Source of the DNA: an uncultured Chloroflexia bacterium
GTDB taxonomy: Bacteria > Chloroflexota > Dehalococcoidia > Dehalococcoidales > RBG-16-60-22
NCBI GenBank assembly: GCA_963759785.1
Contig: CAVXAM010000006.1
Location: forward strand, 18,389 to 82,388
DNA length: 64,000 nucleotides
Direction: 5' to 3'
This document shows positions 9,960 to 62,934 of the stretch, piece after piece. Each line of letters opens with the position of its first letter. Within the stretch, counting starts at the first letter, position 1. The notes beneath the pieces were generated by a model. The model was not told the DNA's origin. It did not search any database and saw only the letters and a list, made by a program, of their open reading frames with translations. The position numbers were made by a program, and so were the translations under genes.

Positions 9960-10164
9960 TGTCTTCTCTCGATTTCATATTTATTTCGGTAATTCCTAGG
10001 TTCTGGCGCAATTTTATTCTATTTACATTTACATTGTCAAAAAAATGTGACGTTTTTGTGATGATTGCAAACTATTTTGTGATTGTAACGTTACATATAA
10101 TAGTTAGACTTTTTTCAAGTAAAACACTTGAAACGATTTATATAAAAGGCATAAAAGGAGCAAT

Positions 10165-10335
10165 TTGCGTATTATTAAGCTCAAAGGCTGCAAGCGGTGC
10201 GGCGGTGATTTGGTTTTAGACCGGGACTACGAAGGCTCTTATATTACTTGTCTACAATGCAGCGCCATTTACGTTAAAATTCAGCCAACTTTGGCGAAAA
10301 AGCCCGAGCCAAAGAAAATCTACGCCCGCGTGTAA
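10165..10335 (+). CDS. Small Zn-ribbon protein, 56 aa (not in ORF track)
   Basis: AAAGGAG RBS + TTG; MRIIKLKGCKRCGGDLVLDRDYEGSYITCLQCSAIY... Confidence 0.75.
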   Translation: MRIIKLKGCKRCGGDLVLDRDYEGSYITCLQCSAIYVKIQPTLAKKPEPKKIYARV

Positions 10336-10343
10336 AGAGGGTT

Positions 10344-10982
10344 TTATTTCTCGTCCTTCGTCTCTTCACTCTCACTTTTTTCGCGTTCTCTAATCCAGCG
10401 TTTGATATCGTCCAAAGCGGGTGGGGATACATAAAAAACCTGGATATCCGGCGGAAACTGTACCTGATGGTTTTCCCGCATCAGCACCAAGCCAATCTCA
10501 TTCTCTTTTAAAGTCTCATCTATTTTTTTCGCCAAGGACTCATTGCGTTTTTTCCCGACATCAGAATAGAATTCGTATATCTTCGTGATTACTTTAGGAT
10601 TCAGCAAGCCTACTAACAGACAGCGACTCCAATCCATAAATTCAGTAAGGACTTCATTATCCTCGAAGGCTTCCAGGCTGGCTTTTTTATCCAGGCAGAC
10701 TTTAACGATTTTCTGGCTTGATTTATTTAAGTCCTTAAGCGTCTTTAAACCGTTTTCTCCGGAATCAGCTATCAGCTCATGGAATATCTTATTGACTTCG
10801 CCGAGTTTCGATGACAGTTCGATAATCTGCTGCTCAACCTGTTCCCAGTATTTATTAAGTTTTTTATTATAGTCTTCCGGCGAATCTTCGCCGGTATAAA
10901 GAACCGGCACGAAAAATATCTTGCGGCCTGTTTTAAAGCTTTCTACTGGCGGTTTTTCAATTTTCCCTAGTTCTTGCGTCAT
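10344..10982 (-). CDS. Hypothetical protein
   Basis: Start MTQELG after AAGGA RBS; the longer track ORF overlaps the upstream gene. Confidence 0.7.
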   Translation of the reverse strand: MTQELGKIEKPPVESFKTGRKIFFVPVLYTGEDSPEDYNKKLNKYWEQVEQQIIELSSKLGEVNKIFHELIADSGENGLKTLKDLNKSSQKIVKVCLDKKASLEAFEDNEVLTEFMDWSRCLLVGLLNPKVITKIYEFYSDVGKKRNESLAKKIDETLKENEIGLVLMRENHQVQFPPDIQVFYVSPPALDDIKRWIREREKSESEETKDEK

Positions 10983-11017
10983 AGCATCCTTTGTTAGATT
11001 TGTAATATCAAATATGT

Positions 11018-11356
11018 TTACTGAATAGTCTTTTCGCACTCGCTGCAAACGAAAATGACCGGCCGAAATCGTTTGATTACTTTCATCTCGGAAATCGGTT
11101 TTTGCTTTTCGCAAAGACGGCACTTAAAAGTGACCCCCGAAACAGGAGAGGATATTTTTGACTTCGTTTCGATTTTAGGTTTCACCTCTATTTTAGATTT
11201 GGTAACGGCTTTGGACTTTGTTATAACTTTAGGTTTGGCGGTAATATTAGGTTTCTTCTGGGTTTTAGGTTTTATTACGCTTTTAGGTTTCGTTTTTATT
11301 TTTGGTTTAGCTGGACTTTTGGGATTAGCTTTACTTTTGGATTTCGCTTCAGCCAT
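11018..11356 (-). CDS. Lysine-rich repeat protein with C-terminal CxxC..CxxC domain
   Basis: AAAGGAG RBS; about 11 K[PS]Kxxx hexapeptides, then CRLC...CSEC. Confidence 0.75.
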   Translation of the reverse strand: MAEAKSKSKANPKSPAKPKIKTKPKSVIKPKTQKKPNITAKPKVITKSKAVTKSKIEVKPKIETKSKISSPVSGVTFKCRLCEKQKPISEMKVIKRFRPVIFVCSECEKTIQ

Positions 11357-11515
11357 AACGACTCCTTTAGGACAGATTTATTTCCCGTCTCTTTTAGAAT
11401 AAGGAAGCTGATATCTATCTAAGTTACTTTAATAGGCATAGGGTCAAAAAGTCAACTTTTGGGCACGCTATTTTCAGTATTGTCAAACTAATAAAACTTT
11501 CTATATACTATTTAT

Positions 11516-12703
11516 ATGGAATCAATACTTCACAGCACAGAATTCCAGATGAGCCTGCTGATGTTTGTAGCATTAGCGGGTTACCTGATTGCCTACCGGA
11601 TAAACCAGTCGGCAGTAGTAGGGATTATCCTGGCAGGCATTTTTGTCGGCCCAAGCTTACTTAGGTGGGTGACCTATACTGACTTCGTGTCCACTTTGGC
11701 ACATCTTGGCGCTATCGTTCTCTTATTTACCATCGGGCTTGAATTCAACATCAAAGATATTTTTAAAGTTAAGTATTTTATAATTGCCCTTTGTGGTATT
11801 ATCGTGCCCGCTTTAGGAGGTTTCTTCTTAGCCAAGCTATTTGATTACGATTTCAACGCCTCTATTATCATCGGTACCGCCCTCACCGCTACCAGCATCG
11901 CTATCACCGCCAATGTTTTAAGGGAAATGGGTAAACTGCAGACCGAAACCGCTAAAGCTATTATCGGCGCCGCTGTTATCGATGATGTACTTGCTTTGCT
12001 GGTTTTATCATTCTCGGAGGGTCTGGTTTCCGGTGATCTAACGGTAGTGTCAATATTGATTACAGCGGCTAAAGCGGTAGGATTTATTATCGTGGGAATT
12101 TTAGCCGGCAAATACATATTCAGCAAACTTTTAGTTCGACTGGATTGCACAAAGATATGTGCGAAATATCCGGAATCTATTTTCATAGCCACGATAATGG
12201 TGGCTTTTCTTTATGCCTTGGCAGCCGAACTAGTTGGTTTATCGGCTATCGTCGGCTCATTTCTTGCCGGATCATCATTCGCCGGCATTAAGTTAACCAA
12301 AGAAAAAATCTTTAAAGAAGGGGCGGAACATCTGCAGATAATATTCGCCTCCATCTTCTTTGTGTCATTGGGTATTATCATGGACCTCCATGAGATGACC
12401 TGGAATGTACTTTGGTTTACATTAGCGTTAACCGCAGTAGCAATGGTTACTAAGGTTATCGGCTGCGGTGTGCCGGCATTGACACAGCGAATGAACACTA
12501 AAGACTCTCTGATTATCGGCACCGGGATGGTTCCTCGCGGCGAAGTAGCAATGATTGTGTCGTTAATCGGGTTGAATCAGGGTTTAATTAACCAGAGTAC
12601 TTACTCCGCCTTGATTTTAATGAGTCTGTTAACGACGATTATACCGCCCTTAATTTTAAGAAACTGGCTTTATAGACACCAAACCCCCAAAATATCCGCC
12701 TAA
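11516..12703 (+). CDS. Cation:proton antiporter (CPA2/KefB-NapA family)
   Basis: LLFTIGLE, ATSIAIT, AAVIDD, MVPRGEVA; about 12 TM helices. Confidence 0.92.
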   Translation: MESILHSTEFQMSLLMFVALAGYLIAYRINQSAVVGIILAGIFVGPSLLRWVTYTDFVSTLAHLGAIVLLFTIGLEFNIKDIFKVKYFIIALCGIIVPALGGFFLAKLFDYDFNASIIIGTALTATSIAITANVLREMGKLQTETAKAIIGAAVIDDVLALLVLSFSEGLVSGDLTVVSILITAAKAVGFIIVGILAGKYIFSKLLVRLDCTKICAKYPESIFIATIMVAFLYALAAELVGLSAIVGSFLAGSSFAGIKLTKEKIFKEGAEHLQIIFASIFFVSLGIIMDLHEMTWNVLWFTLALTAVAMVTKVIGCGVPALTQRMNTKDSLIIGTGMVPRGEVAMIVSLIGLNQGLINQSTYSALILMSLLTTIIPPLILRNWLYRHQTPKISA

Positions 12704-16321: not shown

Positions 16322-18004
16322 GTGGCGAAACTAAAATCCCCCGGCGATTTAGAAGCTCTTAGAAGCTCAATATTAAAACAGAGAGACCCTGCTAAGCCAT
16401 GCATCACCATCTGTAACGGCACCGGCTGCCAGGCATATGGCTCAAAGAGTATCGTGGCGGCTTTCCAGGATGAAGTCAAGAAGCAAAAACTGGAAGATAA
16501 AGTTGACGTTAAAGCCATCGGGTGTCCCGGCTTTTGCGAGCGAGGTACGCTGGTTGTCATTAAACCAAAAGACATATTTTACCAGAGGGTGCGTCCCAAG
16601 GACGTGCCGGAAATCATCACCGAAACTATCGTTAAAGGCGGCGTCGTTAACCGATTGCTTTATACTGACCGCGCTACCAACGAAAAAGTAAACAAAGAAG
16701 GCGATGTACCATTCTATAAAAAGCAGATGCGCTTGATTATCGGCAATAACGGCTTAATCGACCCCACCGTTATTGAAGACTATTTAGCTATCAGCGGCTA
16801 TACTGCGCTGGCTAAAGCCCTCAAAATGATGCCCGAAAACATTATCGAAGAAGTTAAAAAATCGGGGTTAAGGGGTCGGGGAGGGGCAGGGTTTCCAACC
16901 GGCAGTAAGTGGGAGAGCACGCGCAACGCCCACGGCAACATTAAATATGTTATCTGTAACGCCGAGGAAGGCGACCCCGGTGCTTTCGTGAACAGAAGTT
17001 TGATGGAAGGCAACCCGCACAGCGTGCTGGAGGGGATGATTATCGGCGCCTACGCCATCGGCAGTCATGAAGGTTATATCTACATCCGGAACGGATACAC
17101 GCTGGCAACGCGGCACATGCGCCTCGCCCTGGAGCAGGCGGAAACCTACGGCCTACTTGGCGATAATATCCTGGGGTCGGGCTTCAGCTTCAATATTAAG
17201 ATAAAACGCGGCGGCGGTGCCTACGTCTGCGGCGAATCCACGGCTTTAATGGCATCTCTGGAAGGTAGGGTAGGGGAACCGCGCGCCAAGTATATCCATA
17301 CTTCGGAGCAGGGTCTCTGGGGCAGGCCCAGCAACCTGAATAACGTCGAAACCTGGGCTAATATACCTTTAATTATAAATAAAGGTGCCGATTGGTACTC
17401 AAAAATTGGTACAGCTGGCAGCAAGGGTACCAAGATATTCGGCCTGGCCGGCAATGTTAGCAATACCGGTCTTGCTGAAGTGCCGATGGGCACCACCCTG
17501 CGGGAAATCGTCTTCGATATCGGCGGAGGTATTCCCAAGGGACGTAAGTTCAAGGCCGTCCAGACCGGCGGACCCTCCGGCGGTATGATTCCGGAAAATC
17601 TTCTCAACCTACCAGTGGATTTCGATGAGTTGACCAAAGCTGGTTCCATGATGGGTTCCGGCAGTATGATTGTCATGGACGATAAAACCTGCATGGTCGA
17701 TATGGCGCGTTATTACACCACCCTGCTCGAGGGCGAGTCCTGCGGCAAGTGCGTGCCCTGCCGGGAAGGCTTAAGACAGATGGGATACATACTGGACGGC
17801 ATTACCGAGGGGCGGGGTAAAGAAGGCGATATCGAACTCCTCGAAGAACTTTCGGCGACATTGATTGACGCTTCACTCTGCCAACTAGGTCAATCCGCGC
17901 CCAACCCGGTAATAAGTTCGATTAAACATTTTAGAGACGAATACATAGCCCATATTAAAGAAAAGAAATGCCCGGCGGGCGTCTGCAAATTCGGGCAGAA
18001 GTAA
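16322..18004 (+). CDS. NuoF/HydB-like FMN/NAD(P)H-binding subunit
   Basis: GLRGRGGAGFPTG, CNAEEGDPGAF, GGPSGG, ESCGKCVPCREG; N-terminal thioredoxin-like Fe-S domain; no C-terminal 2x[4Fe-4S]. Confidence 0.93.
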   Translation: MAKLKSPGDLEALRSSILKQRDPAKPCITICNGTGCQAYGSKSIVAAFQDEVKKQKLEDKVDVKAIGCPGFCERGTLVVIKPKDIFYQRVRPKDVPEIITETIVKGGVVNRLLYTDRATNEKVNKEGDVPFYKKQMRLIIGNNGLIDPTVIEDYLAISGYTALAKALKMMPENIIEEVKKSGLRGRGGAGFPTGSKWESTRNAHGNIKYVICNAEEGDPGAFVNRSLMEGNPHSVLEGMIIGAYAIGSHEGYIYIRNGYTLATRHMRLALEQAETYGLLGDNILGSGFSFNIKIKRGGGAYVCGESTALMASLEGRVGEPRAKYIHTSEQGLWGRPSNLNNVETWANIPLIINKGADWYSKIGTAGSKGTKIFGLAGNVSNTGLAEVPMGTTLREIVFDIGGGIPKGRKFKAVQTGGPSGGMIPENLLNLPVDFDELTKAGSMMGSGSMIVMDDKTCMVDMARYYTTLLEGESCGKCVPCREGLRQMGYILDGITEGRGKEGDIELLEELSATLIDASLCQLGQSAPNPVISSIKHFRDEYIAHIKEKKCPAGVCKFGQK

Positions 18005-18016
18005 GGATTAGATAAG

Positions 18017-18748
18017 ATGGTAAATATCACCATTAACGGACGACAGCTAAAAACGGAAGAGGGCAAAACGATTCTGGATGCCGCCCGCAAACATAACATC
18101 TACATCCCGACTTTATGCGCCAACGAAGCAGTGGCGCCTTACGGGGCGTGCCGTTTGTGCCTGGTAGAGATAAAAACTGCCCGCGGCAGGGAAAGACTGG
18201 TAACCTCATGTATCTACCTTGTCGAAGAAGGATTAACGGTTCAAACCGACACCGAAAGAATCAAGAAAATACGCTCGATGTTAATGGAGCTGCTATTAGC
18301 GAGATGCCCGGATTCCGAAGAAATACAGAAACTGGCTAAAGAGTTCGGCGTGGCTACGACGCGATTCGTCGAGCAGAACGGTAACAATAAATGCATCCTC
18401 TGCGCCAACTGCGCCCGCACTTGCGAAGAAGTGGTCGGTGTCGCGGCTATCAGCCTGGCTCAACGAGGTGTCGAGCGCGAACTCATTACGCCTTTCAACG
18501 AGGACTTTTCCGAAGCCTGTATCGGCTGCGGTTCCTGTTCGTATAGCTGCCCGACCGGCGCGATAACGATGGAAGATAAAAAAGGCAAACGCGTCATCAA
18601 CTGGCCGCATAACACAATGGAATTTAAACTAAGAAAGTGTTCTAAATGCGGTCAATACTGGGCGCCGGAAAAACAGATTGAATATATCGCTAAAACATCG
18701 GGCACGCCATTAAGCGATTACGATGCCTGCCCCGATTGCCGGGATTAA
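18017..18748 (+). CDS. NuoG/HydA N-terminal-like Fe-S protein without a catalytic domain
   Basis: IPTLC..GACRLC..C, CILCANCARTC, CIGCGSCSYSCP, C-terminal CSKC..CPDC. Confidence 0.88.
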   Translation: MVNITINGRQLKTEEGKTILDAARKHNIYIPTLCANEAVAPYGACRLCLVEIKTARGRERLVTSCIYLVEEGLTVQTDTERIKKIRSMLMELLLARCPDSEEIQKLAKEFGVATTRFVEQNGNNKCILCANCARTCEEVVGVAAISLAQRGVERELITPFNEDFSEACIGCGSCSYSCPTGAITMEDKKGKRVINWPHNTMEFKLRKCSKCGQYWAPEKQIEYIAKTSGTPLSDYDACPDCRD

Positions 18749-19990: not shown

Positions 19991-21373
19991 CTAGATGCTT
20001 CTTAACAGCATCCCCAAGCCCTTAAAGTTCATCTTAATTTCGCCCCAGCTAGTGCAGCGTCGCAGTCTTTGCCATATATACGCGGGACGCAGATAGAACT
20101 GACGGTAGGCGCGGCTGGTCCACTTTTCGAGGTCCTTACGTGTTAGATTATCGCTCTCGAAAACCGGGCTGGTAGGATTATCCGTCCCGGCATAAACGAA
20201 CTTCGCCCAATCAATCTCTCCCGGATTAATCTGTTTATATATCTCGTATAATTCCGTGCCGGGAAACGGGGTGGTCACTGAAAACTGGGCGAAGTCTACT
20301 TTTAGTTTCTTGGCGAAGTCGATGGTCTGCCGGATAGTCTCCGGCGTTTCTCCTGGCGAACCGAGCATAAAGTACCCGACGACCTGTAAGCCGACTTCCT
20401 GATGGGCGCGGATGGCTTTTTCAACCTGTTCCAGGGTTATGTCTTTTTGTAAGGTCTTGATTATTTCCGGCGAAGCAGATTCGATGCCGTAAGCGACTGT
20501 ATAGCAACCAGCCTCTTTCATGTGTTTGAGTAATTCTTTGTCTACCAGATTAACGCGCGTTTCGCAGGTCCAGGCGATTTTAAGTTTCTTGGCAATTATC
20601 CTGTCGGCGATGGCGTAGATTCGTTTTTTATCAAGCGTGAAGGAGTCATCGTAAAAAGCGATTTCTTTAACGCCGAACTTTTTGATTAAGTACTCCATTT
20701 CTTCAATAACGCGGTCGGGACTCTGCGCGCGAAACTTAGAGCCGAAAACCGGCTTGGAACAGTAGGCGCAGCGGTAAGGACAACCCCGGCTTGTTACCAT
20801 CGCGCCGAAAGGCATCGCCATGCCGTGCGGGGGGTGGGGTCGATATTTTTGCCACGGTAGTAAATGAAAAGCCGGGTAGGGGAGCGAATCCATATCGATA
20901 GGCGTTTTATTATCCGGGGTATGAATTACTTTGTCGCTTGATTTATAGCTTATCCCGGCTACCTTATCTAAAGGACGGTTGTTTTCTAATGCTTGCAACA
21001 AATCAATAACCGTAACGTCAGCTTCACCACGGACAATAACATCGATATCGTTAGTCGAGGCCAGTGTTTCTTCGGGAAGAAGCGTAACGTGAGGACCACC
21101 GAGGATTATTTTTAGATTGGGACTTTTTTGTTTTATATAGTGCGCGATAATTAGTGCCGTACCAATGGTCGGCGTCATCGCTGTAATACCAACGACGTCC
21201 GCATCGGTCACCAACCCCGCTATTTCTTCCGGCTTTAGTCCCAAAGCATTAGCTTCGAGTAATTTTACCTGGTGACCGGCTCTCTCTAAAATCGCGGCAA
21301 TTAAAGCTAAACCAAGGGGCGGTTGGGGATAGCGGGTATCCTGCGGCGGATTTATCATCGTTATCTTAAGCAT
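19991..21373 (-). CDS. Cobalamin-binding radical SAM protein
   Basis: PPLGL, GGPHVT (B12 domain), TSRGCPYRCAYC, GIESAS, TPFPGT. Confidence 0.92.
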   Translation of the reverse strand: MLKITMINPPQDTRYPQPPLGLALIAAILERAGHQVKLLEANALGLKPEEIAGLVTDADVVGITAMTPTIGTALIIAHYIKQKSPNLKIILGGPHVTLLPEETLASTNDIDVIVRGEADVTVIDLLQALENNRPLDKVAGISYKSSDKVIHTPDNKTPIDMDSLPYPAFHLLPWQKYRPHPPHGMAMPFGAMVTSRGCPYRCAYCSKPVFGSKFRAQSPDRVIEEMEYLIKKFGVKEIAFYDDSFTLDKKRIYAIADRIIAKKLKIAWTCETRVNLVDKELLKHMKEAGCYTVAYGIESASPEIIKTLQKDITLEQVEKAIRAHQEVGLQVVGYFMLGSPGETPETIRQTIDFAKKLKVDFAQFSVTTPFPGTELYEIYKQINPGEIDWAKFVYAGTDNPTSPVFESDNLTRKDLEKWTSRAYRQFYLRPAYIWQRLRRCTSWGEIKMNFKGLGMLLRSI

Positions 21374-21391: not shown

Positions 21392-22525
21392 CTATTTCTT
21401 TTCTCGCGCTAAAGCGCGGATGATGAAACCGGTAAAGATACTGAACACCCCGACGACAATTAAGGATATCGTTAAAAGAGTATTGCCCGTCGGTAAAACG
21501 CCATAAATAGAATATAGATTCAACACCCTGATGCCAAAACCCAGCCCGACAATGACCATAATCAAGCCGCTTAACCCAAAGAACAATAGCGGACGCCGCT
21601 CTGAAATAATCGCTAATATCCTGGCGAAGATATTGGCGTCGTGTTTTCCTGTTTGCAGTGTCGAGAGTATGAAACCGGTAAAGATACTGAACATGCCGAT
21701 GACTATTAGAACTACCGAGACTAGAGTATTGCCGGTCGGTAAGACGTTACTTTCGGAATATAGTGTCAGTACTCTGATACCGAAACCTAAGCCAACAGTT
21801 ACAACTATAGCGCCCCCAAATCCGAAGAAAAATAGGGGACGCTGTTCCGATATCATAACCAGTATCCTGGTAAATACCCCCAACCCATGCCGGACCGGAT
21901 TCAGGGTCGAGCTGTCTTTGCTGTAGGTAACGTTAACGGGAACCTGGGTGACTTTTAGGTTCTTTTTATATGCCTGGGCGACCGTTTCGGCGGAAATAGC
22001 CATGCCCGTCTCCCTTAGCTCTAGAGTTTGTATCGCTTTGCGGGAAAAAGCGCGGAAGCCGCATTCGGAATCAGTCAGTGTGTCTTTGGCAAGCGTTTTA
22101 ACAGAGCGGAGAATTATCTTCTGCCCGATACGACGATAAAATGGTATCTTCTTTGCCTGCTCCTGCCGCGACCCGATAACAAGGTCACGGTCATTTTCGA
22201 GGATTGGCTTAATGAGTGCCGTAATCTCCTGGGGACAGTGCTGGGCGTCGGCATCGAGGATAACGAGGACATCGGGATTTATCTTTTTCGCCTCAGTGAA
22301 GATGCTTTGGATGGCGGCGCCGTAGCCGCTGTTTTTCTGGTGCTGGATGACTTTAGCGCCGGCAAGTTTCGCTATCTCAACAGTATCATCAGTGCTGCCG
22401 TCATCAACAACGATTACTTCATCAACATATTTTCGGGTTTGCAGCACCAGCGAGCCGATATACTTAGCTTCGTTAAAAGCGGGCATACCGGCGATAATTT
22501 TAGGCTTGGACTTTTTGTTTACCAT
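21392..22525 (-). CDS. GT2 glycosyltransferase (DPM1-like) with duplicated C-terminal TM module
   Basis: MPAFNE, VVDDGSTD, LDADAQH, DSECGFRA. Confidence 0.9.
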   Translation of the reverse strand: MVNKKSKPKIIAGMPAFNEAKYIGSLVLQTRKYVDEVIVVDDGSTDDTVEIAKLAGAKVIQHQKNSGYGAAIQSIFTEAKKINPDVLVILDADAQHCPQEITALIKPILENDRDLVIGSRQEQAKKIPFYRRIGQKIILRSVKTLAKDTLTDSECGFRAFSRKAIQTLELRETGMAISAETVAQAYKKNLKVTQVPVNVTYSKDSSTLNPVRHGLGVFTRILVMISEQRPLFFFGFGGAIVVTVGLGFGIRVLTLYSESNVLPTGNTLVSVVLIVIGMFSIFTGFILSTLQTGKHDANIFARILAIISERRPLLFFGLSGLIMVIVGLGFGIRVLNLYSIYGVLPTGNTLLTISLIVVGVFSIFTGFIIRALAREKK

Positions 22526-22588
22526 AGTGTCTCAGTTGGTTAATTATAACGTTGACTTATACTGGGAAGCAAGAGAAGGCTAATTGGT

Positions 22589-23695
22589 TTACTTTATTTT
22601 GATATAAGGAGGTTCATATATTGTAGTATGTTTATTATTATGACGGTTAGATAGATACTTTTTAATTTTCTTTTTTATGATTCTAAATATAAGCCTGCGA
22701 CTTATTCTTCTTGGAAAATCAATTATAGGTTTTTTACTAAGCCTTGATAAATATATTGGATTAGGAAACAGACTATAAAAATTTATCAAAAGTGAATCAT
22801 CGGCAGACAAATTAAAGAGTTTCGATTCTAGATAACTTTCTTTAATTGGAGAGTACACAGATTTATTAGTGGTTTCATTTAGTATCGCGTCATCTATACG
22901 TTGTTGAATATCTGAAAGCTTTGATAAGGCAAATGTCATTTCCCTTTTTACAGACATTGCACTAAAATAATTCATAAATGTAATAACAGTCACTACCTGA
23001 AGAAAAATAACTAATAATACTGGCAGAATAACACTAGTATCAGTAACATAAATAGATTTAAGTAATATCAAAGACCAAATTGGTAATGCAAAAAGTGCAC
23101 CAACGTAAATCAGCGTATACAAAAAGATTATTATCCAGTTAAAAGCTCGTAATTTTACAGAAACTAGCTTTTTCCTGTTTTTTTCTAAATCACCTATAAC
23201 TTTTGTATTTAATATTGGAAGAGTAAAGAATATTATACAAGAAATAATAGGTACAACTACTGGATATTCTATATCTGATCCAATTATATTCATTTCTTTT
23301 AGTACTAATGATACAAACGAAATGAAAAATAATATACCTATAGTTTTAAATAATGGAACTGCGTTTTTGAAACTCACTAGTAGTAAAAATAAATCTCTTT
23401 CAGACAACCTTGATCTTCTTGTAATACCTACTTTATTTTCTTTTTGAAGACTTCGACTCTTTACTAATGACCTTACCAAAGAAAACATGAGAACAATCCA
23501 CATCAAGAAAAATGAGGCTGGTATCCAGTAAAGAAGAAGCCCAAATTGTTTGCTCAAGAATGAAGTTATTACTAGTGAAATGAAAGCGCTAAGTAAACTA
23601 GAATCAATGCTTTGTATTTGAATTCCAATTAACCGCGAACTCTGTTCAACATTTTTACTTAATTCTCTAAAAGTATCGGAATATTTTTCTACCAA
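22589..23695 (-). CDS. AT-rich hypothetical multi-pass membrane protein
   Basis: 368-aa ORF with about 6 hydrophobic segments, visibly AT-richer than its flanks. Confidence 0.65.
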   Translation of the reverse strand: MVEKYSDTFRELSKNVEQSSRLIGIQIQSIDSSLLSAFISLVITSFLSKQFGLLLYWIPASFFLMWIVLMFSLVRSLVKSRSLQKENKVGITRRSRLSERDLFLLLVSFKNAVPLFKTIGILFFISFVSLVLKEMNIIGSDIEYPVVVPIISCIIFFTLPILNTKVIGDLEKNRKKLVSVKLRAFNWIIIFLYTLIYVGALFALPIWSLILLKSIYVTDTSVILPVLLVIFLQVVTVITFMNYFSAMSVKREMTFALSKLSDIQQRIDDAILNETTNKSVYSPIKESYLESKLFNLSADDSLLINFYSLFPNPIYLSRLSKKPIIDFPRRISRRLIFRIIKKKIKKYLSNRHNNKHTTIYEPPYIKIK

Positions 23696-23832
23696 ATGAT
23701 TTTATCTACCCCTGTTGAGAATTTTAACAAATCGTCACTAAAATTCTAATCTCCATTTATTTTTATGTCAATGATGATTTTTGCCCTTTTGACATCACTA
23801 GGTTTTCAAGATAAAATTAAAATTGCATCAGC

Positions 23833-23908
23833 GCGGGAGTAACTCAGTTGGTAGAGTTCCTGCCCTCCAAGCAGGCTGTCGCGGGTTCGAGTCCCGTCTC
23901 CCGCTCCA
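23833..23908 (+). tRNA. tRNA-Gly(TCC)
   Basis: GCGGGAG acceptor, U discriminator + CCA, CCTGC-CCTCCAA-GCAGG anticodon arm. Confidence 0.92.
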
Positions 23909-23919
23909 ATTTTTCCCTT

Positions 23920-24106
23920 GGTTGGTAGAGTTTCTCGATTTCTATCGGGACTATCGACGGGTTTTCCTCGGCTACGCTCGGAATAAACGAGTCCCGCTTG
24001 CCCTTCAGAGCTTCCATGGTAAGTTTATCGAACCATAGCGTTGAAGGGTCTCTCGCTCCACTTGTCCTGAGTTTATCGCAGGATTCATCCCGAGCTTGTT
24101 GAGGGA
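23920..24106. repeat. Degenerate REP-like intergenic repeats (RAGYTT.TCGA-type units)
   Basis: Similar units GAGTTTCTCGA, AAGTTTATCGAA, GAGTTTATCGCA, GAGCTTGTTGAG between tRNA-Gly and the kinase stop. Confidence 0.45.
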
Positions 24107-27877: not shown

Positions 27878-29792
27878 GTGAAAATGGATAAAAGAGAAAC
27901 AATACCACAGATAATCAAGAGCAACGCCGCCAAGTGGGGCAGCCGTACCGCGATGTCCATGAAGGCGTTCGGTATCTGGCGGCGTTACACCTGGCAGGAA
28001 TATTACGACAACGTTAAGTATTTCTCGCTGGGTTTGATAAGCTTGGGGTTTAGGATTGGCGATGTCGCCTGCATCATCGGCGATAACGAGCCACAGTGGT
28101 TCTGGGCGGAGTTCGCCGTCCAGGCGGCGGGGGGTATCGCTACCGGTATCTACGTTGACTCCATTCCTGCTGAAGTCCGTTACGTCGCCGTGCATTCCGA
28201 CGCCAAGTTCGCCGTCGTTAACGACCAGGAGCAGACCGATAAATTCCTGGAAATTAAAGACGATTTACCCTTACTACAAAAAATTATCTACTGGGACACC
28301 AAAGGGCTACGCAACTATGACGACTCGATGTTGATTAGTTTCAACGAGGTGATGGCGCTCGGTAAGGAATATGATAAAAAACATCCCGATCTTTTCGAAA
28401 AGAACGTCGCTGCCGGTAAGGGCGACGATATCGCCTTCATCTACTATACTTCCGGCACGACTGGACTACCCAAAGGGGCGGTATTGACCCACCACGCTTT
28501 AATCACCACCGCCCAAGGTTTTATCGACCGTTATCCCCTGGATGAAAAAGATAACCTGATATCCAACTTCCCGGCAGCGTGGGTGGGCGACAGCTTTTTC
28601 GCCACCATCCCCCATTTATTGACCGGGGCAGTACTGAACTTCCCCGAAGAGCCGGAAACCATCGCTGAAGATACGCGTGAAATCGGTCCCAACTTCGTCA
28701 TCTACGGTCCCCGCCAGTGGGAGGGGCTGGTTAGCGAAATACAGGTTAAAATGCTGGACGCCTACTGGCTTAAACGATTGACATATAAAACATTCTTACC
28801 GGTGGGACATAAAATCGCCGATATGAAGTTCGCTGGTAAAACCCCGAACCTTTTCTGGCGCGTCTTGCATTATTATCGCTTATCTGGCGTTGTTCCGTCC
28901 CCTTAAAGACCGGCTGGGCTTAAGCAATGTCAGGTTCGCTGTAACGGGCAGCTCCGTGTTAAGCCTCGATACCTTCCGACTCATCCACGCTATCGGCGTC
29001 GAGCTGCGGCAGTGCTACGCCAGCACTGAAGCCGGCTTAATCTCCTCCCACAGCCAAGGTGAGATTAAGTTCGAAAGCGTGGGACGTCCCGCTCTGGGCA
29101 CTACTTTAAGAATCACCAAAGAAGGCGAACTGCTGGTCAACAGCGACTGCATGTTCACTGGCTACCATAAGAATAAAGAAAAAACCGAGACGACGCTAAT
29201 CGACGGCTGGTGTCACACCGGCGACGCCGTCAACCTCAACGAAGAGGGACATATCATCTTCATGGACCGGCTGGAGCACATGGGTATTTTAAAGTCCGGC
29301 GCCAAATATGCGCCGCAATATATCGAGGGGCGGTTAAGGTTCAGTCCCTACATTAAAGACGCCATGGTTATCGGCGGTAAGGATAAAGATTATGTTTCCG
29401 CCATCGTTAACATCGACTTCGCGATGGTGGGTAAATGGGCGGAACGGCACCGTATTCCCTATACCACCTTCGTCGACCTTTCGCAGAAAAAAGAGGTCGC
29501 CGCTTTAGTACGCCAGGACCTGGAGCGCGTTAACGGCTATCTGCCCGAGCAGTCCCGCGTCCAAAAGTTCGTCCTGCTCCATAAAGAGTTCGACCCCGAC
29601 GAAGCGGAACTTACACGCACGAGGAAGCTACGCCGCGAATTCATGGAGCAGCGCTATAAAGAACTCATCGACACCTTATACGGCAACATCACTACGATAG
29701 ATGTAGAAGCACCGGTTACCTACCGCGATGGACGTAAAGGCGTGGTAACCACCAGCATCCATATCAGGGACATTGGGAAAGAGGCATCATAG
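27878..29792 (+). pseudogene. AMP-dependent long-chain acyl-CoA synthetase split by a 1-nt frameshift near 28870
   Basis: YTSGTTGLPKG in the 5' half; YASTE and HTGD in the 3' half; the two frames overlap at 28868..28906. May be an assembly error. Confidence 0.8.
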
Positions 29793-53809: not shown

Positions 53810-54502
53810 GTGACAAATGAAAAAGGACGCAAACACCTGCCGCCTTACGTTTCTTACCGCACCTTTTATAACTTCCTGGAACGGTTAGAACAGCATATGC
53901 CCTCCCGCATCGACCGGAGCTATTGGGGTGATTTGCTTTCCGGCAGTACGGGTATTCAGTTGATGGCGGCGCTGCGGTTTCTTAACTTGATGGATATTAA
54001 CGGCAAGCCTACCGAGCACTTGAAATCGCTCGTCGTAGCTAAAGGCGAAGCGAGAACGCAAATCCTACGCAGTATTACTAACGACTCATTCGACTTCGTC
54101 TGCAAAAGCCCGCTCGACCTCGGAAGTGCTACCTACGCACAACTGCAGGAGGTCTTTCATAACACCTTCCAGTTGACCGACGACGTCAGCCGTAAGTGTG
54201 TAAAATTCTTTATCGGCTTAGCTAAAGATGCAGGGATTACCATATCGCCGTTTATTACCAAAAGGACGCGTTCCACTCATTCCAATACTGGCGTAAGAAT
54301 AGCTGTAAAGAAAATTGGTACCAAGACAGATAAAAATACTATAATTCCACAAACGCAGGACGAAATTCCAAATTCCAATTCTTATATCCACTTACTCTTG
54401 TCCAAATTCCCGAACTTCGACCCCTCGTGGAGCGACGAGATAAAATTGAAATGGTTCGCGGATTTCGACGAATTATTGAAAAAAGCGCAGATTAACCGGT
54501 AG
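53810..54502 (+). CDS. DUF5343-like protein
   Basis: LPPYVSYRTF, P.RIDRSY, L..ALRFL.L.D..G.PT; C-terminal LLSKFPNFDPSW...KWF. Confidence 0.65.
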   Translation: MTNEKGRKHLPPYVSYRTFYNFLERLEQHMPSRIDRSYWGDLLSGSTGIQLMAALRFLNLMDINGKPTEHLKSLVVAKGEARTQILRSITNDSFDFVCKSPLDLGSATYAQLQEVFHNTFQLTDDVSRKCVKFFIGLAKDAGITISPFITKRTRSTHSNTGVRIAVKKIGTKTDKNTIIPQTQDEIPNSNSYIHLLLSKFPNFDPSWSDEIKLKWFADFDELLKKAQINR

Positions 54503-56587: not shown

Positions 56588-56833
56588 TTTAGCCTTGATA
56601 GTGTTAACTTTAGGATTATATCATTTTAAGTCAGAATATTTAAATTAATCAGCCATTCTCCCATAAATAACACCATAGTTATATTAATTAACAATTATAT
56701 GTTAATAGTGCTATATTTCTGAACATCACTTGTTATTTAGCAACAACCGAGACTCAAATACCCCATTCCGGACTCGTAAGAACCTCGCACAATAAACTGG
56801 TATCATGTTATAATTACGTTCGGAGAACCACCT

Positions 56834-57730
56834 TTGAAGAAACTCAAATTCTGGCTACTAGAAACTCGTCCCCAATTTCTTATCCTGTCTTTAATACTGG
56901 CTTTCCTGGGTACAACCATTGCCCTGTATAACGGCACCATCAGCATCTGGTATGCTGTACTTGCTGGTTTCGGTTTAGTACTCACCCATGCCAGTGTCAA
57001 CATCCTTAACGACTATTTCGACTTCCGTAGTGGTATCGACCAGGCAGCGAGACGCACTCCTTTCAGCGGCGGTAGCGGTATTCTCCCCGCCAACCTACTG
57101 ACACCCCACCAAGTGCTCTGGTTGGGTATAGTCTGTTTTACCCTGGCGGTACCAATCGGTATTTACTTTATCGTTGTCAGCGGCTGGCTTTTACTGCCGT
57201 TATTGATTGTCGCTGCCTTTTTCATCGCACTTTATAGTCCCTTTATCCTAAAGCATCCCTGGCCGGAATGGGCGGCAGGCGTTGGTCTCGGCGCTTTACC
57301 CATCTTAGGCATGTATTTCGTGCAAACCGGGGCCTATACCTGGGATTCTGTTGTCGTCTGTATCCCCTCGGCGTTTCTGGTACATAACCTACTACTGCTT
57401 AACGAATTTCCCGATACCGAAGCCGATAAACTGGCGAACCGTAAGACTATGACCATCACCGTGGGTAAGAAAAAAGCGGCGATTTTCTATTCAGCAATCA
57501 ATATCGCCGTATACGTCTGGATAATTGCCTGGGTGGCAGCCCGGGTTATGCCAATCTGGTCGCTTCTGGCGCTGCTTACGCTGCCCCTGGCTATCAAAGC
57601 TATCAACAGCGCCTTCCATTATGATGAACTCAATAAACTCGTACCGGGTATGGCAGCCAACGTAGCGAATGTCCTGCTAACACAGTTGTTATTGGGTATC
57701 GGTTATCTTATCGGTCACGTTGTAGGTTAA
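56834..57730 (+). CDS. menA: UbiA-family prenyltransferase, MenA-like
   Basis: NDYFDFRSGID, FSGGSG, NEFPDTEAD..KT. Confidence 0.75.
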   Translation: MKKLKFWLLETRPQFLILSLILAFLGTTIALYNGTISIWYAVLAGFGLVLTHASVNILNDYFDFRSGIDQAARRTPFSGGSGILPANLLTPHQVLWLGIVCFTLAVPIGIYFIVVSGWLLLPLLIVAAFFIALYSPFILKHPWPEWAAGVGLGALPILGMYFVQTGAYTWDSVVVCIPSAFLVHNLLLLNEFPDTEADKLANRKTMTITVGKKKAAIFYSAINIAVYVWIIAWVAARVMPIWSLLALLTLPLAIKAINSAFHYDELNKLVPGMAANVANVLLTQLLLGIGYLIGHVVG

Positions 57731-57735
57731 GATTT

Positions 57736-58452
57736 ATGGCAAGCCTTCAAAAGACTCCTTTACACGGCATCTTTACCGCCGTTCCCCCCCATTACGACCT
57801 GGTTAACCGCATTATTACGCTGGGGATGGATAAAAGATGGCGCCGGCTGGCAGCTCAAGCCTGTCTGGATTCAAACCCCCGGAAAGTTTTAGACATCGGC
57901 TGCGGTACCGGCGACCTCACGATTAATATCGCCCAACTAGCACCTAAGGATACGGAAATTATCGGGCTGGACTATAGTGCCCCGATGTTACAAATAGCAC
58001 GGCAAAAATCCGTTAAAGCCGGGATTAGTCAAAGAGTTCGTTTTATTGAAGGCGAAGCATCAAAACTCCCCTTCCCTGATGCCTGTTTCGATTGTACGGC
58101 AATATCCTTCGCCTTCCGTAATCTGACCTATAAAAATCCGGTATGCTTTCCACACCTCGCCGAGGTAGTAAGAGTCTTAAAACCCGGGGGACATTACGTT
58201 ATCGTTGAATCAAGCCAGCCGGAAAATAGCTTTATCCGGGCGTACTTTCACCTATATCTACGCGCTTTCGTGATGCCGATGGGGTTAATCCTTTCCGGTA
58301 ATAAAAGCGCTTACCGCTACCTCGCGGAGTCCACCCGGCATTATTTTAGTCCAAAGGGAGTTAGAGATTTGTTACTAAAGGCAGGCTTCCGTGACGTCCA
58401 CTATCGTCCCCTGTTTTTCGGCGCCGCCGGCATTCATGTGGCTGTTAAGTAG
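57736..58452 (+). CDS. menG: Demethylmenaquinone methyltransferase (MenG/UbiE)
   Basis: YDLVNRIITLG.D.RWR, LDIGCGTGD, FAFRN, RVLKPGG, AYRYL.ES. Confidence 0.88.
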   Translation: MASLQKTPLHGIFTAVPPHYDLVNRIITLGMDKRWRRLAAQACLDSNPRKVLDIGCGTGDLTINIAQLAPKDTEIIGLDYSAPMLQIARQKSVKAGISQRVRFIEGEASKLPFPDACFDCTAISFAFRNLTYKNPVCFPHLAEVVRVLKPGGHYVIVESSQPENSFIRAYFHLYLRAFVMPMGLILSGNKSAYRYLAESTRHYFSPKGVRDLLLKAGFRDVHYRPLFFGAAGIHVAVK

Positions 58453-59697
58453 CTAAATCTGGTGTTCGATACAATATTCGCGCAATGTATTCAGCGCGGC
58501 GAAAAACTCCCGCATCATAACACTCACGGGATACATGCCTTTTTCGGTTACCTGCAGAGATTCATTGCCAGTGGCCACCCCGCCTGCCTTTAAAAAAGCC
58601 AGTTCCAACCATAATTTCCGCCCTATTCCCCCACCAAAGCGCTGCTGAAAAGTCTCTATATCCAGTTTCATACCGAAGAGCTTGGTTAAAAGGTAGTAAC
58701 GTAAGTTTTCTCTTTCCGACAGCTGACGCCAACCTACGATAGGTAACTGATTAGAGTTAATCAACTCATGGTAATGTTCTAACGCGAAGGAGTTAACGTA
58801 GAAATTGCCCCCGACAATACTCACCGAACCCGACCCGATACCGATATAATCGTCCGACTCGATGATATATTCGTCAATCATGCGTTCGCCGCGGGAAAAA
58901 CACCAGGCTGTTGACGCTTTATAGCCGCCGCGATAAAGCTGCTTTAAAATAACATCGTAAAACTGTTTTTCACGGGAGTTATCCACCTTATTAAACCGCC
59001 GTTCGAGGGCATCCTTCTTATGCGGCGAAGCCATCAGCGGATAAAACGTCGCCTGGTCGATACCTAACTCCTTAAACGCTGTAATATCGTTGGTGAATTG
59101 TTCTATGGTTTGTCCCGGGAAATTGAATACGAAGTCCACGTTTAACGTGTCGAATTGTCTTTCGGCTGTTAGGAGTCGTTTTTTGACCTCTTCCGCCGGT
59201 CCATTAACCCTGCCCATCGTTTTAAGGACGCTTTCCTCAAAGCTCTGGACACCGACAGAAAGCCGGTTTACGCCGAACTCTTTAAGGAGTTTAATATTCC
59301 GCTGGGTTAATTCTCTCGGAGTGGTTTCCAATGAAATCTGTTTAACTTTAAATTGCTTTCGTAAATGTTTAATGAATGCGCCGAGTTCATCCATCAGCAC
59401 AGTGGGCGTGCCCCCGCCGAAATAAATATCGGAAAAGCTAAAGCCCCTCCCCCAATATATCTCTAGCTCCTGTTTCAAGTCTTTAAAATAGCGGCGGGCT
59501 GAATCTTCTTGAAAAAGGTAACGGTTAAAACAGCAAAATGGGCATAGCGAGCGGCAAAACGGAATATGCACATAAAGCGATATCTCATTACCCTCAATCA
59601 ACCGGTCCGCGTTGATTATAGAGGTATCGATAGGCTTAAGGCGGCGAAACTTGCGTCCCTCTCGCTGGGTGATAAAGCCGGCTATTTCTGCAATCAT
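58453..59697 (-). CDS. HemN-like class C radical SAM methyltransferase, probable MenK/MqnK
   Basis: YVHIPFCRSLCPFC, FGGGTPT, DQATFYPLM, YIGIGSGS; abuts menG. Confidence 0.72.
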   Translation of the reverse strand: MIAEIAGFITQREGRKFRRLKPIDTSIINADRLIEGNEISLYVHIPFCRSLCPFCCFNRYLFQEDSARRYFKDLKQELEIYWGRGFSFSDIYFGGGTPTVLMDELGAFIKHLRKQFKVKQISLETTPRELTQRNIKLLKEFGVNRLSVGVQSFEESVLKTMGRVNGPAEEVKKRLLTAERQFDTLNVDFVFNFPGQTIEQFTNDITAFKELGIDQATFYPLMASPHKKDALERRFNKVDNSREKQFYDVILKQLYRGGYKASTAWCFSRGERMIDEYIIESDDYIGIGSGSVSIVGGNFYVNSFALEHYHELINSNQLPIVGWRQLSERENLRYYLLTKLFGMKLDIETFQQRFGGGIGRKLWLELAFLKAGGVATGNESLQVTEKGMYPVSVMMREFFAALNTLREYCIEHQI

Positions 59698-61929: not shown

Positions 61930-62934
61930 TTATTTTTCAGAATATCTTCCTCTATTAGGATCAGATAAATAAGTCAGGAAAATTTTTTTAGGAAATTTCA
62001 TGATTATTTCATTTAGTTGTTCCAATAAAGAATTATCTATATAACCATAAATGACGATATGTATATCAAAAGGGAATTTCAAATATGCTATTAGTTGCCC
62101 CATTAAACGATCTATATCAGATTGTGTGGGATTCAGTTTACCTTCAATAATAGACTGTTCAAAGAATACATCAGCTACTCTTTTATTCCCTAAATTATAG
62201 TGATATGTAGCATCATTAAATCCCATAGCCTTTAAACATGATGTTAGTGCACGATTAGCTTCATCCTCATCTTTAAACCATTTATGTGTTTTATCAATAG
62301 CTTTTAAAGCTTTCTCTAGCGCATCTTTGACAATAGTATTTTCTGAAGGTGGAGGCGATGGCAAACTTTTTATTTCAGGTTGTCTTTCCACTATGATATC
62401 AATTGGAAGAGGTGGCATTGGTTGTACTTTAGATTGTTTTTTTTGTAAATCACCATTAGATTTTTGGGTATTTATTAATTTACGAATTGGTTTATATATA
62501 ACTGGTGAAATAAAAACAATAAATAACAATATCCCTAACAATATAAACCAAACATTATGTTGGGGTATCATCTCATATATGCTAATGTTATATTTAGTTC
62601 TTTGTTGCCACGCTATATTTTCATCTATTGAAATATTATCTCTTTCTACTTTAACTTTCCTGATATCTATTTCAAGCTTACTCCAAGTGACATTATATGA
62701 TACTTGAGTAACATTATTTGATAAAATTACTCTATATGTTTGGTCTGGTTTAATAGTAGTAGTAGGAGATAATTTTACTTCTATATAATCACCATAATTT
62801 TGGGGGGGACTAACTAAAGCAACCGGATTATAAGCCACAGATACGGGCTCTAGAATATACATATAAGCACAGATACAAAAAAATAATCCTATTATAGCTA
62901 GACATACTAAAATGAACCGCATGCTTATTTTCAT
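61930..62934 (-). CDS. AT-rich membrane-anchored protein with C-terminal PD-(D/E)XK nuclease-like domain
   Basis: Two TM segments, Pro-rich linker, RVADV..IIEGK..DRLMGQLIAY. Confidence 0.55.
   Translation of the reverse strand: MKISMRFILVCLAIIGLFFCICAYMYILEPVSVAYNPVALVSPPQNYGDYIEVKLSPTTTIKPDQTYRVILSNNVTQVSYNVTWSKLEIDIRKVKVERDNISIDENIAWQQRTKYNISIYEMIPQHNVWFILLGILLFIVFISPVIYKPIRKLINTQKSNGDLQKKQSKVQPMPPLPIDIIVERQPEIKSLPSPPPSENTIVKDALEKALKAIDKTHKWFKDEDEANRALTSCLKAMGFNDATYHYNLGNKRVADVFFEQSIIEGKLNPTQSDIDRLMGQLIAYLKFPFDIHIVIYGYIDNSLLEQLNEIIMKFPKKIFLTYLSDPNRGRYSEK

Follow-up and report, generated by a model that had tools for sequence, protein, structure and literature searches.

Cultured Dehalococcoides are the standard example of quinone-free respiration, and the question addressed here is whether an uncultured member of the Dehalococcoidales makes and uses a quinone. 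The question is raised by three neighbouring genes in a stretch of 64,000 nucleotides (nt) of contig CAVXAM010000006.1 (this whole stretch is called the window below), which encode a UbiA-family prenyltransferase, a MenG/UbiE-type methyltransferase and a HemN-like radical S-adenosylmethionine (SAM) protein. The original prediction, made from the letters of the window, took them for a MenA, MenG and MenK-like trio that prenylates and doubly methylates a perhaps scavenged naphthoate head group, and derived from this a quinone-based respiratory chain. Our analysis partly supports that interpretation. We estimate the probability at about 0.6 that the trio represents the late part of a (methyl)menaquinone pathway, of a salvage type without ring synthesis of its own, which would serve low-potential membrane electron transport. 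The predicted features of the locus are as follows (lengths of proteins in amino acids, aa).

56834..57730, plus strand: UbiA-family membrane prenyltransferase of the MenA/UBIAD1 type, non-canonical clade (298 aa, TTG start)
57736..58452, plus strand: MenG/UbiE-type SAM-dependent C-methyltransferase, of the type that converts demethylmenaquinone to menaquinone (238 aa)
58453..59697, minus strand: class C (HemN-like) radical SAM protein of the MenK/MqnK/MenK2 signature family (414 aa)
56588..56833, no strand: AT-rich spacer of 246 nt between the divergent rlmN and UbiA genes, putative promoter region of the UbiA-MenG pair

Family assignment of the three proteins

The radical SAM protein passes the NCBIfam model NF006385 (399.4 against a cut-off of 355; PF04055 is also matched), for which none of 14 control genomes had a match above cut-off. 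It does not pass the models for HemW (TIGR00539, 157.4 against 205.4), HemN (TIGR00538, 134.1 against 324.95) and ChuW/HutW (152.7 against 400). The protein was further compared with the six signature motifs of menaquinone methyltransferases (MKMTs) from Wilkens 2021, in the form and with the frequencies quoted in PMC10320005 (Table 2 for the motifs).

Motif 1, LYxHxPFCxxxCxxCxF (radical SAM cluster site; 96.0% of MKMTs): exact, LYVHIPFCRSLCPFCCF, residue 41
Motif 2, YFxxxRxE (91.7% of MKMTs, 0.1% of HemW): YFKDLKQE, residue 70, with K replacing R
Motif 3, GxxFxxxYxGGGT (97.1% of MKMTs, 2.2% of HemW): exact, GFSFSDIYFGGGT, residue 85
Motif 4, RxSxGxQxFxxxxL (further signature motif): exact, RLSVGVQSFEESVL, residue 145
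Motif 5, QxTxYPLx (89.7% of 828 MKMTs, 0.0% of 7747 HemW proteins): exact, QATFYPLM, residue 215
Motif 6, NxFxxxxY (95.0% of MKMTs, 2.0% of HemW): exact, NSFALEHY, residue 302

Five of the six motifs are exact and the sixth deviates conservatively; motif 5 lies within DQATFYPLM, the string to which the original prediction had drawn attention. The motif scan found neither the HemW motif HNxxYW nor the HemN motifs GPRYTSYPTA and RNFQGYTT in the protein. Motifs 1 to 6 are kept in 71, 13, 72, 63, 73 and 72 of 73 full-length Dehalococcoidales relatives, respectively. An internal control is given by HemW-like paralogues from four genomes in this order, which have HNxxYW and lack motifs 2, 5 and 6. 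Sequence comparison detected two solved relatives only, HemN (1olt, 1e-28) and NocN, a class C methyltransferase (9p2u, 7e-18). Among the 120 homologues listed, five (75-79% identical) are named 'menaquinone C8-methyltransferase' by JGI, and the remaining named ones are 'coproporphyrinogen III oxidase-like'.

A FastTree phylogeny of 132 rows was calculated, comprising 116 cluster representatives (380-520 aa, of 150 listed), the window protein, 8 relatives, 4 HemW-like paralogues and 3 other paralogues, with the rows labelled by published motif count instead of characterised reference sequences. One branch with a support of 100 encloses 95 rows, including the window protein and all 41 rows with five or six motifs, and the HemW-like and other HemN-like paralogues fall outside it. 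The motif count, NF006385 and this motif-labelled clade all agree with the predicted kinship to MenK/MqnK and not to HemN/HemW, and membership of the window protein in the MenK/MqnK/MenK2 signature family is supported at the level of sequence.

The MenG/UbiE label is likewise confirmed, as the methyltransferase passes PF01209 (187.7 bits against a cut-off of 20.1) and TIGR01934 (214.1 against 158.35); it lies slightly under the equivalog model NF001244 (212.6 against 216).

The prenyltransferase matches PF01040 with 104.8 bits, and its ten best NCBIfam matches are all MenA-type models, one of which is named only 'prenyltransferase'. The models of digeranylgeranylglyceryl phosphate (DGGGP), haem O and chlorophyll synthases reach at most 33 bits, and the sole PDB match is UBIAD1 (8djk, E = 8.7e-10, full length). 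Homologues are called '1,4-dihydroxy-2-naphthoate (DHNA) octaprenyltransferase' by JGI and only 'prenyltransferase' by NCBI. The protein stays below every MenA cut-off (the best is NF004749 with 156.4 against 277; TIGR00751 gives 67.3 against 102.15), whereas in G005 and G034, two other genomes of the order, the canonical MenA encoded next to MenB passes TIGR00751 (132.7 and 129.3) and shares 25-27% identity with it. Two Asp-rich stretches, NDYFDFRSGID and DTEAD, are present in the sequence, which we take to be the catalytic motifs, and the identity across related loci is 51-82%. Because the cut-offs are missed while the best matches are of MenA type, the protein is MenA-like in kind and stands outside NCBI's MenA equivalog family; by sequence, MenA is the nearest subfamily of the UbiA superfamily. 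The predicted MenA-like character therefore stands as far as the nearest models and UBIAD1 are concerned, and has to be corrected in that this is not a canonical MenA.

Conservation of the trio and a second radical SAM partner

Eighty related loci were collected, all from uncultured metagenome-assembled genome records, whose radical SAM proteins share 57-82% identity with the window protein. MenG adjoins the radical SAM gene in 65 of the 80. Synteny was counted on the 62 loci that extend at least 1900 nt past the radical SAM stop. MenG and UbiA are convergent with the radical SAM gene and adjacent to it in 51 of these, the aligned ends being a median of 12 nt apart; the remaining 11 comprise seven loci with neither gene, two with MenG about 1 kb off, one with MenG only and one with UbiA only. 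The outer flanks are variable across the 80 loci (RlmN in 10, TerC in 6), and since 51/62 loci keep the convergent arrangement while the flanks vary, the arrangement of the trio is not due to chance.

The distribution of these genes was analyzed in 151 evenly drawn Dehalococcoidales genomes, the host included, with a threshold of E<=1e-90 for the UbiA orthologue (chosen in this analysis). The UbiA orthologue is present in 85 genomes and the MenK-like gene is above cut-off in 26, of which 25 hold the UbiA orthologue as well; the one without it is G034, from a sister genus described below. In genomes without the MenK-like gene, a conserved block was detected that runs from GatB through SecG, a SAM hydrolase and UbiA, mostly with MenG next, to a B12-binding radical SAM protein (about 570 aa), which passes TIGR04190 (the Thermoplasma 'Ta0216 family'; 655-690 bits against 500). 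TIGR04190 is above cut-off in 61 of the 151 genomes, 45 of which have the UbiA orthologue, and in none of the seven genomes of the host's family (the best match in the host genome is 24% identical). In 44 of those 45 genomes the UbiA and TIGR04190 genes are on the same contig within 3.6 kb, and in 42 within 1.3 kb (judged by eye from the place tables). Four examples of the TIGR04190 gene directly 3' of UbiA or UbiA-MenG, all outside the window, are given below.

L102:5885-7603, minus strand: TIGR04190 protein
L093:6729-8438, minus strand: TIGR04190 protein
L095:10390-12096, plus strand: TIGR04190 protein
L098:11193-12902, plus strand: TIGR04190 protein

In total, 69 of the 85 genomes with the UbiA orthologue have a radical SAM partner (25 MenK-like, 45 TIGR04190, one of them both). 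The MenK-like gene and TIGR04190 occur together in G092 only, which amounts to near mutual exclusion. Among the 16 UbiA genomes with neither gene, at least four (G003, G013, G030 and G059) show fragments of TIGR04190. At the other end, family f10 (seven genomes of 1.4-1.9 Mb, six of them closed with a single contig), which may represent the cultured dechlorinators, lacks the MenK-like gene, the UbiA orthologue, TIGR04190 and the EMO-like gene discussed below. The UbiA clade of the window thus differs from canonical MenA in its surroundings, being never beside MenB and tied to a radical SAM gene instead. The named proteins closest to TIGR04190 are C-methylases, HpnR and BzaD among them, and the literature searched contained nothing relevant on TIGR04190, on Ta0216 or on a cobalamin-dependent menaquinone methylase. 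Its occurrence in MenK's place beside the same genes offers a concrete candidate function for a class B radical SAM family to which none has been assigned.

The window itself encodes another B12-binding radical SAM protein (19991-21373, minus strand, 460 aa), adjoining an AglJ-like glycosyltransferase. Its best models are HpnJ (280.9) and BchE (239.1), all below cut-off, and it was rejected as a TIGR04190 member (80.6 bits).

At the junction in the window, the MenG stop codon TAG (58450-58452) runs straight into CTA (58453-58455), the reverse complement of the radical SAM TAG (58447-58458 reads ...AAG TAG/CTA AAT...), so that the two stop codons abut with 0 nt between them. The three open reading frames (ORFs) and their stop-to-stop meeting at 58452/58453 are accordingly as first described. 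UbiA and MenG lie on the same strand with a gap of 5 nt, which makes their co-transcription plausible, and GGAG is found 8 nt upstream of the UbiA TTG start. The spacer at 56588..56833 is the putative promoter region of the pair; promoter-like hexamers within it show no excess (6, against a shuffle mean of 5.5), and neither does the terminator scan (5, against 3.5 in shuffles). The trio is bordered by housekeeping genes, with rlmN and terC at one end and genes for an HD-GYP/GAF protein and a Sir2 deacylase at the other.

The host is an uncultured, non-dehalogenating Dehalococcoidales, in agreement with the Dehalococcoidia-like origin that had been proposed. Among the records behind the 80 related loci, 79 bear the label Dehalococcoidales, Dehalococcoidia, Dehalococcoidaceae, Chloroflexia, Chloroflexi or Chloroflexota, and the last is assigned to Deltaproteobacteria. 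The host assembly has 1.85 Mb in 9 contigs and is 88.9% complete, and no match to the reductive dehalogenase profile was above cut-off in it (best 58 bits against 160.35).

Ring synthesis genes and candidate quinone users

The absence of ring synthesis genes, noticed originally for the window, extends to the whole host genome as assembled. The profile search for MqnA/D gave no match there, and MenD, MqnC and isochorismate synthase were above cut-off in none of 11 genomes (the host and 10 family members). Six crotonases considered as MenB candidates are ordinary enoyl-CoA hydratases (61-168 bits against 342.7). A hidden isochorismate synthase was also rejected, as the two chorismate-binding genes of the host are TrpE (587.6 against 517.7) and a PabB-like protein; the ORFs around TrpE have sizes that match a trp operon (of these, TrpE and TrpG were scanned), and the PabB-like gene is followed by PabA-like and PabC-like genes. 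A MenA can be recognised by its co-occurrence with genes for DHNA synthesis, either MenB and other Men genes or Mqn; no such gene was above cut-off in the host genome. Across the order, MenB is above cut-off in 2 of the 151 genomes, and MqnA/D candidates in seven were discarded as marginal (27-35 bits), none of them in a holder of the MenK-like gene.

The genome G034, from a sister genus of the same family (96% complete), is different. It encodes MenF (335.1 bits) and MenD (487.1) side by side, and MenB (363.2) beside a canonical MenA (TIGR00751, 129.3 against 102.15). It also has a MenK-like gene with all six motifs and no orthologue of the window UbiA. The genes concerned are located as follows.

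G034, C125:1410-3826, C117:2851-4571 and C21:9891-11057: Men genes and MenK-like gene

In one of the 80 loci, L037, the MenK-like gene faces a convergent MenG, and UbiA is absent; we infer, from the records and not from an alignment, that L037 is G034:C21, in which case the MenK-like gene of G034 is convergent with MenG. As G034 has the canonical MenA where other genomes have the window UbiA, the two prenyltransferases look interchangeable. Mis-binning of G034 is possible because the contigs concerned are short. With this limit, G034 is the best comparative evidence, and its gene content suggests a role of the MenG/MenK-like pair in menaquinone synthesis and a replacement of MenA by the window UbiA clade.

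Several candidate quinone-dependent enzymes are encoded in the host genome (G000). Two clusters bear on the proposed electron transport.

G000:C5:44368-48494 (L103:3368-7494): etfB, etfA and a 654-aa membrane iron-sulfur (FeS)/CCG protein, followed by genes for the small and large subunits of a NiFe(Se) hydrogenase and MTHFR genes
G000:C7:467958-474822 (L107:5958-12822): ferredoxin-like subunit, NrfD-like protein, 736-aa formate-dehydrogenase-like molybdoenzyme and FdnI-like cytochrome b

The 654-aa protein carries membrane helices at its N-terminus together with two CCG domains. Its alignment to PDB 9ojn_A 'Iron-sulfur-binding reductase', presumably a mycobacterial enzyme, has an E-value of 2.3e-115 and covers both the membrane part (17-310) and the FeS part (317-651); histidines 68, 206, 222 and 224 of the host protein align to histidines of 9ojn. 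The cluster with etfBA is a candidate EMO-type electron transfer flavoprotein (ETF):quinone oxidoreductase, as in syntrophs. A second protein of EMO-like kind (689 aa) is encoded elsewhere in the genome. In addition, there are three genes for NrfD-type membrane subunits, one of them beside a 926-aa molybdoenzyme, and a Nuo complex described as having 11 subunits (NuoA-D, H and L-N were found, I-K were not scanned, and no NuoEFG occurred in the stretch examined). The genome further contains five acyl-CoA dehydrogenases, beta-oxidation-type genes and one HepT-like long-chain prenyl diphosphate synthase. Of the 151 genomes, 69 carry an EMO-like gene of full length; 59 of these have the UbiA orthologue, and only 10 of the 66 genomes without UbiA have an EMO-like gene; the Fisher value for this association overstates the link because related genomes are not independent.

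Some neighbouring observations belong here. A 311-aa UbiA-family gene and a methyltransferase lie 3' of the formate-dehydrogenase-like cluster on G000:C7; this second UbiA gene was rejected as MenA, being DGGGP-synthase-like or haem-O-synthase-like. In the window, porA and porB are followed (16322-18748, plus strand) by genes for a NuoF-like protein of 560 aa and an FeS protein of 243 aa resembling HoxU/NuoG, which may constitute an NADH-linked hydrogenase or formate dehydrogenase module that lies outside the 11-subunit Nuo operon. At 27878-29792 (plus strand), a FadD11-like fatty acid-CoA ligase is split into two overlapping ORFs (342 aa N-terminal, 300 aa C-terminal), which could reflect a frameshift, a pseudogene or an assembly error.

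Two stretches of the window have low GC content, 22001-24000 (0.363) and 10001-12000 (0.398), compared with about 0.49 elsewhere, and hold the ORFs 22589-23695 and 10344-11123, which had no NCBIfam match. The ORF at 53810-54502 (plus strand, 230 aa) had no match in Pfam or NCBIfam, and that at 61930-62934 (minus strand, 334 aa) had none in NCBIfam (Pfam was not scanned).

Proposed pathway, alternatives and known systems

In the pathway that we propose, a head group, most simply DHNA or a related naphthoquinone, would be imported or made by an unrecognised route. The MenA/UBIAD1-like UbiA protein is proposed, from its nearest families, to attach a polyprenyl tail to this naphthoquinol or naphthoate, the tail coming from the single long-chain polyprenyl diphosphate synthase of the genome. 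MenG would then add the C2 methyl group, and the MenK-like class C radical SAM enzyme would add a methyl group to the benzenoid ring at C8 or C7; such an extra ring methyl lowers the redox potential. The product would act as a membrane electron carrier among the EMO-type ETF:quinone oxidoreductase, which the acyl-CoA dehydrogenases would feed, Nuo, the NrfD-anchored molybdoenzymes and the formate-dehydrogenase-like enzyme with its cytochrome b.

Several points weigh against this pathway. With regard to the MenK-like protein, motif 2 has the strict R form in only 13 of the 73 relatives (66 with K or R accepted), and family membership was assigned by motifs, one profile model and automatic names, with a tree that contains no characterised MenK, MqnK or MenK2. 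Moreover, the Campylobacter jejuni protein CgdH2 (Cj0363c) has all six MKMT motifs, binds haem and is reported as a haem chaperone, with methylation left open in the account of PMC10320005; the motifs alone therefore do not prove methyltransferase activity. The acceptor substrate proposed for the UbiA protein is tentative, because the protein misses the MenA cut-offs that canonical MenA proteins of the same order pass. The missing ring pathway is not proven in a genome that is 88.9% complete, and the uptake of the ring would rely on a hypothetical importer. As for the use of a quinone, Dehalococcoides, described as lacking quinones and cytochromes (PMC10772276), also has NrfD and Nuo complexes, so that their presence alone does not require a quinone; the predicted quinone-based respiratory chain gains from the several candidate quinone-dependent enzymes of the host genome. 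Finally, the listing of sequencing runs gave 14 holders of the DNA and no RNA, and is silent on expression and habitat.

The alternative that survives best, though we regard it as rather unlikely, is that the trio makes a prenylated and methylated redox lipid with a non-classical head group, that is, a new quinone-like carrier and not methylmenaquinone. The prenyltransferase would then use another aromatic acceptor, or the ring would come from an unrecognised pathway in which the radical SAM enzyme does more than decorate. The distance of the UbiA clade from canonical MenA (25-27% identity, all MenA cut-offs missed) and the lack of men/mqn ring gene matches fit this idea. So does the coupling of UbiA to a radical SAM gene, which is tighter than expected for an optional decoration, as 69/85 UbiA genomes have such a partner and TIGR04190 lies within 3.6 kb in 44/45. 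A recent survey of bacterial quinones also remarks that Chloroflexota, which it lists among the lineages without quinone pathways, mostly lack known ones and that new quinones may await discovery (PMC13386864). However, MenG passes the cut-off of the UbiE/MenG subfamily, the models nearest to UbiA are all MenA and its sole solved relative, UBIAD1, is a naphthoquinone enzyme, and in G034 the same MenK-like gene accompanies a Men pathway of the classical kind, in which a canonical MenA takes the place of this UbiA.

An improbable explanation is that the HemN-like protein is a haem chaperone or otherwise handles haem for b-type cytochromes, its adjacency to MenG reflecting a shared use in respiration. 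CgdH2, a haem binder with the six motifs (PMC10320005), is the precedent. The MenK-like gene is, besides, the only HemN-family gene found in the host genome and in G137 of the same genus, and the host has genes for haem b proteins, namely the EMO-like protein, whose histidines are conserved, and the FdnI-like cytochrome b. Such a role does not account for the synteny with MenG and UbiA in 51/62 loci, nor for TIGR04190, which has no haem link and takes the same place beside UbiA-MenG across the order. In addition, a separate HemW-like gene is present in many other genomes of the order, including many that hold the MenK-like gene, and PMC10320005 reports no test of methylation by CgdH2.

That the trio is a relic of a lost menaquinone pathway, without a product, would suit the absent ring genes and the full Men pathway retained in one sister genus, but it is very improbable, since three intact reading frames, conserved identity (57-82% for the radical SAM protein and 51-82% for UbiA in dozens of genomes), preserved gene order and signature motifs retained in 63 to 73 of 73 relatives are what would be expected of genes under selection.

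Beyond the late (methyl)menaquinone pathway of the window, a wider proposal can be put forward tentatively, and we consider it less probable than not by a clear distance. Most non-dehalogenating Dehalococcoidales might make a low-potential methylated naphthoquinone by means of the dedicated UbiA clade, an imported or unconventional ring and an obligatory partner from one of two unrelated radical SAM families, class C MenK-like or TIGR04190; surveys of quinone pathways would overlook such a route. TIGR04190 would then be a new cobalamin-dependent quinone C-methyltransferase, and the quinone would drive a syntroph-type loop of EMO/ETF, formate dehydrogenase and hydrogenase, although the cultured members of this class are free of quinones. 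Should the trio of the window yield methylmenaquinone, a large share of uncultured wetland and sediment Dehalococcoidales (the UbiA clade is present in 85/151 genomes) would have quinone-based, low-potential electron transport, probably coupled to the oxidation of fatty acids or aromatic acids through the EMO-type enzyme as in syntrophs. For the naphthoquinone ring they would rely on neighbouring organisms, a dependence that may help to explain their resistance to cultivation and suggests a supplement.

The idea is less new than the original prediction assumed, because menA and ubiE/menG in relatives are already in print (PMC5736913) and JGI already names MenK homologues. That mention of menA and ubiE/menG, from 2017, was the only one in the literature searched, which held no description of a MenK-like gene in Dehalococcoidia. 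The same literature (bioRxiv supplements and Wilkens 2021 outside its scope) described neither the separate UbiA clade nor its nearly constant pairing with class C or class B radical SAM proteins nor the link to EMO.

Compared with known systems, the locus resembles partial menaquinone pathways with an imported ring, in that the genome encodes prenylation and methylation only and ring synthesis is missing; DHNA salvage occurs in some streptococci. In the Chloroflexi single-cell genomes DscP3 and Dsc4, Sewell et al. described menA and ubiE/menG and proposed quinone-dependent electron transfer (PMC5736913). Unlike these, the window has a third enzyme, predicted to add an extra ring methyl, and a separate prenyltransferase clade. 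The window UbiA protein shares with MenA and UBIAD1, the eukaryotic menaquinone-4 synthase, the UbiA fold, MenA models as best matches and a full-length match to 8djk.

The characterised menaquinone methyltransferases are MqnK of Wolinella succinogenes and MenK/MenK2 of Coriobacteriia (reviewed in PMC10114718). Like them, the window protein is HemN-like, lacks the HemW and HemN motifs and adjoins the menaquinone gene MenG; this likeness is judged from motifs and not from an alignment to a characterised sequence, and C8 or C7 as the methylated position is not readable from it. Unlike those systems, the window host has no men/mqn ring genes detected and pairs the protein with a prenyltransferase other than a canonical MenA or MqnP.

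Syntrophus operates a reverse redox loop in which EMO (ETF:methylmenaquinone oxidoreductase) reduces 8-methylmenaquinone and a membrane formate dehydrogenase takes part (PMC8805022; bioRxiv 10.64898/2026.08.18.745454). The host resembles Syntrophus aciditrophicus in having etfBA with a two-CCG membrane FeS protein, acyl-CoA dehydrogenases and a formate-dehydrogenase-like enzyme, and the NiFe(Se) hydrogenase adjoining the etfBA cluster is counted as a further likeness; the likeness is one of gene content, and the comparison of the EMO-like protein is with PDB 9ojn only. Similar to CgdH2, finally, the window protein falls in the MKMT signature clade, and unlike CgdH2 its gene is tied to quinone genes by synteny.

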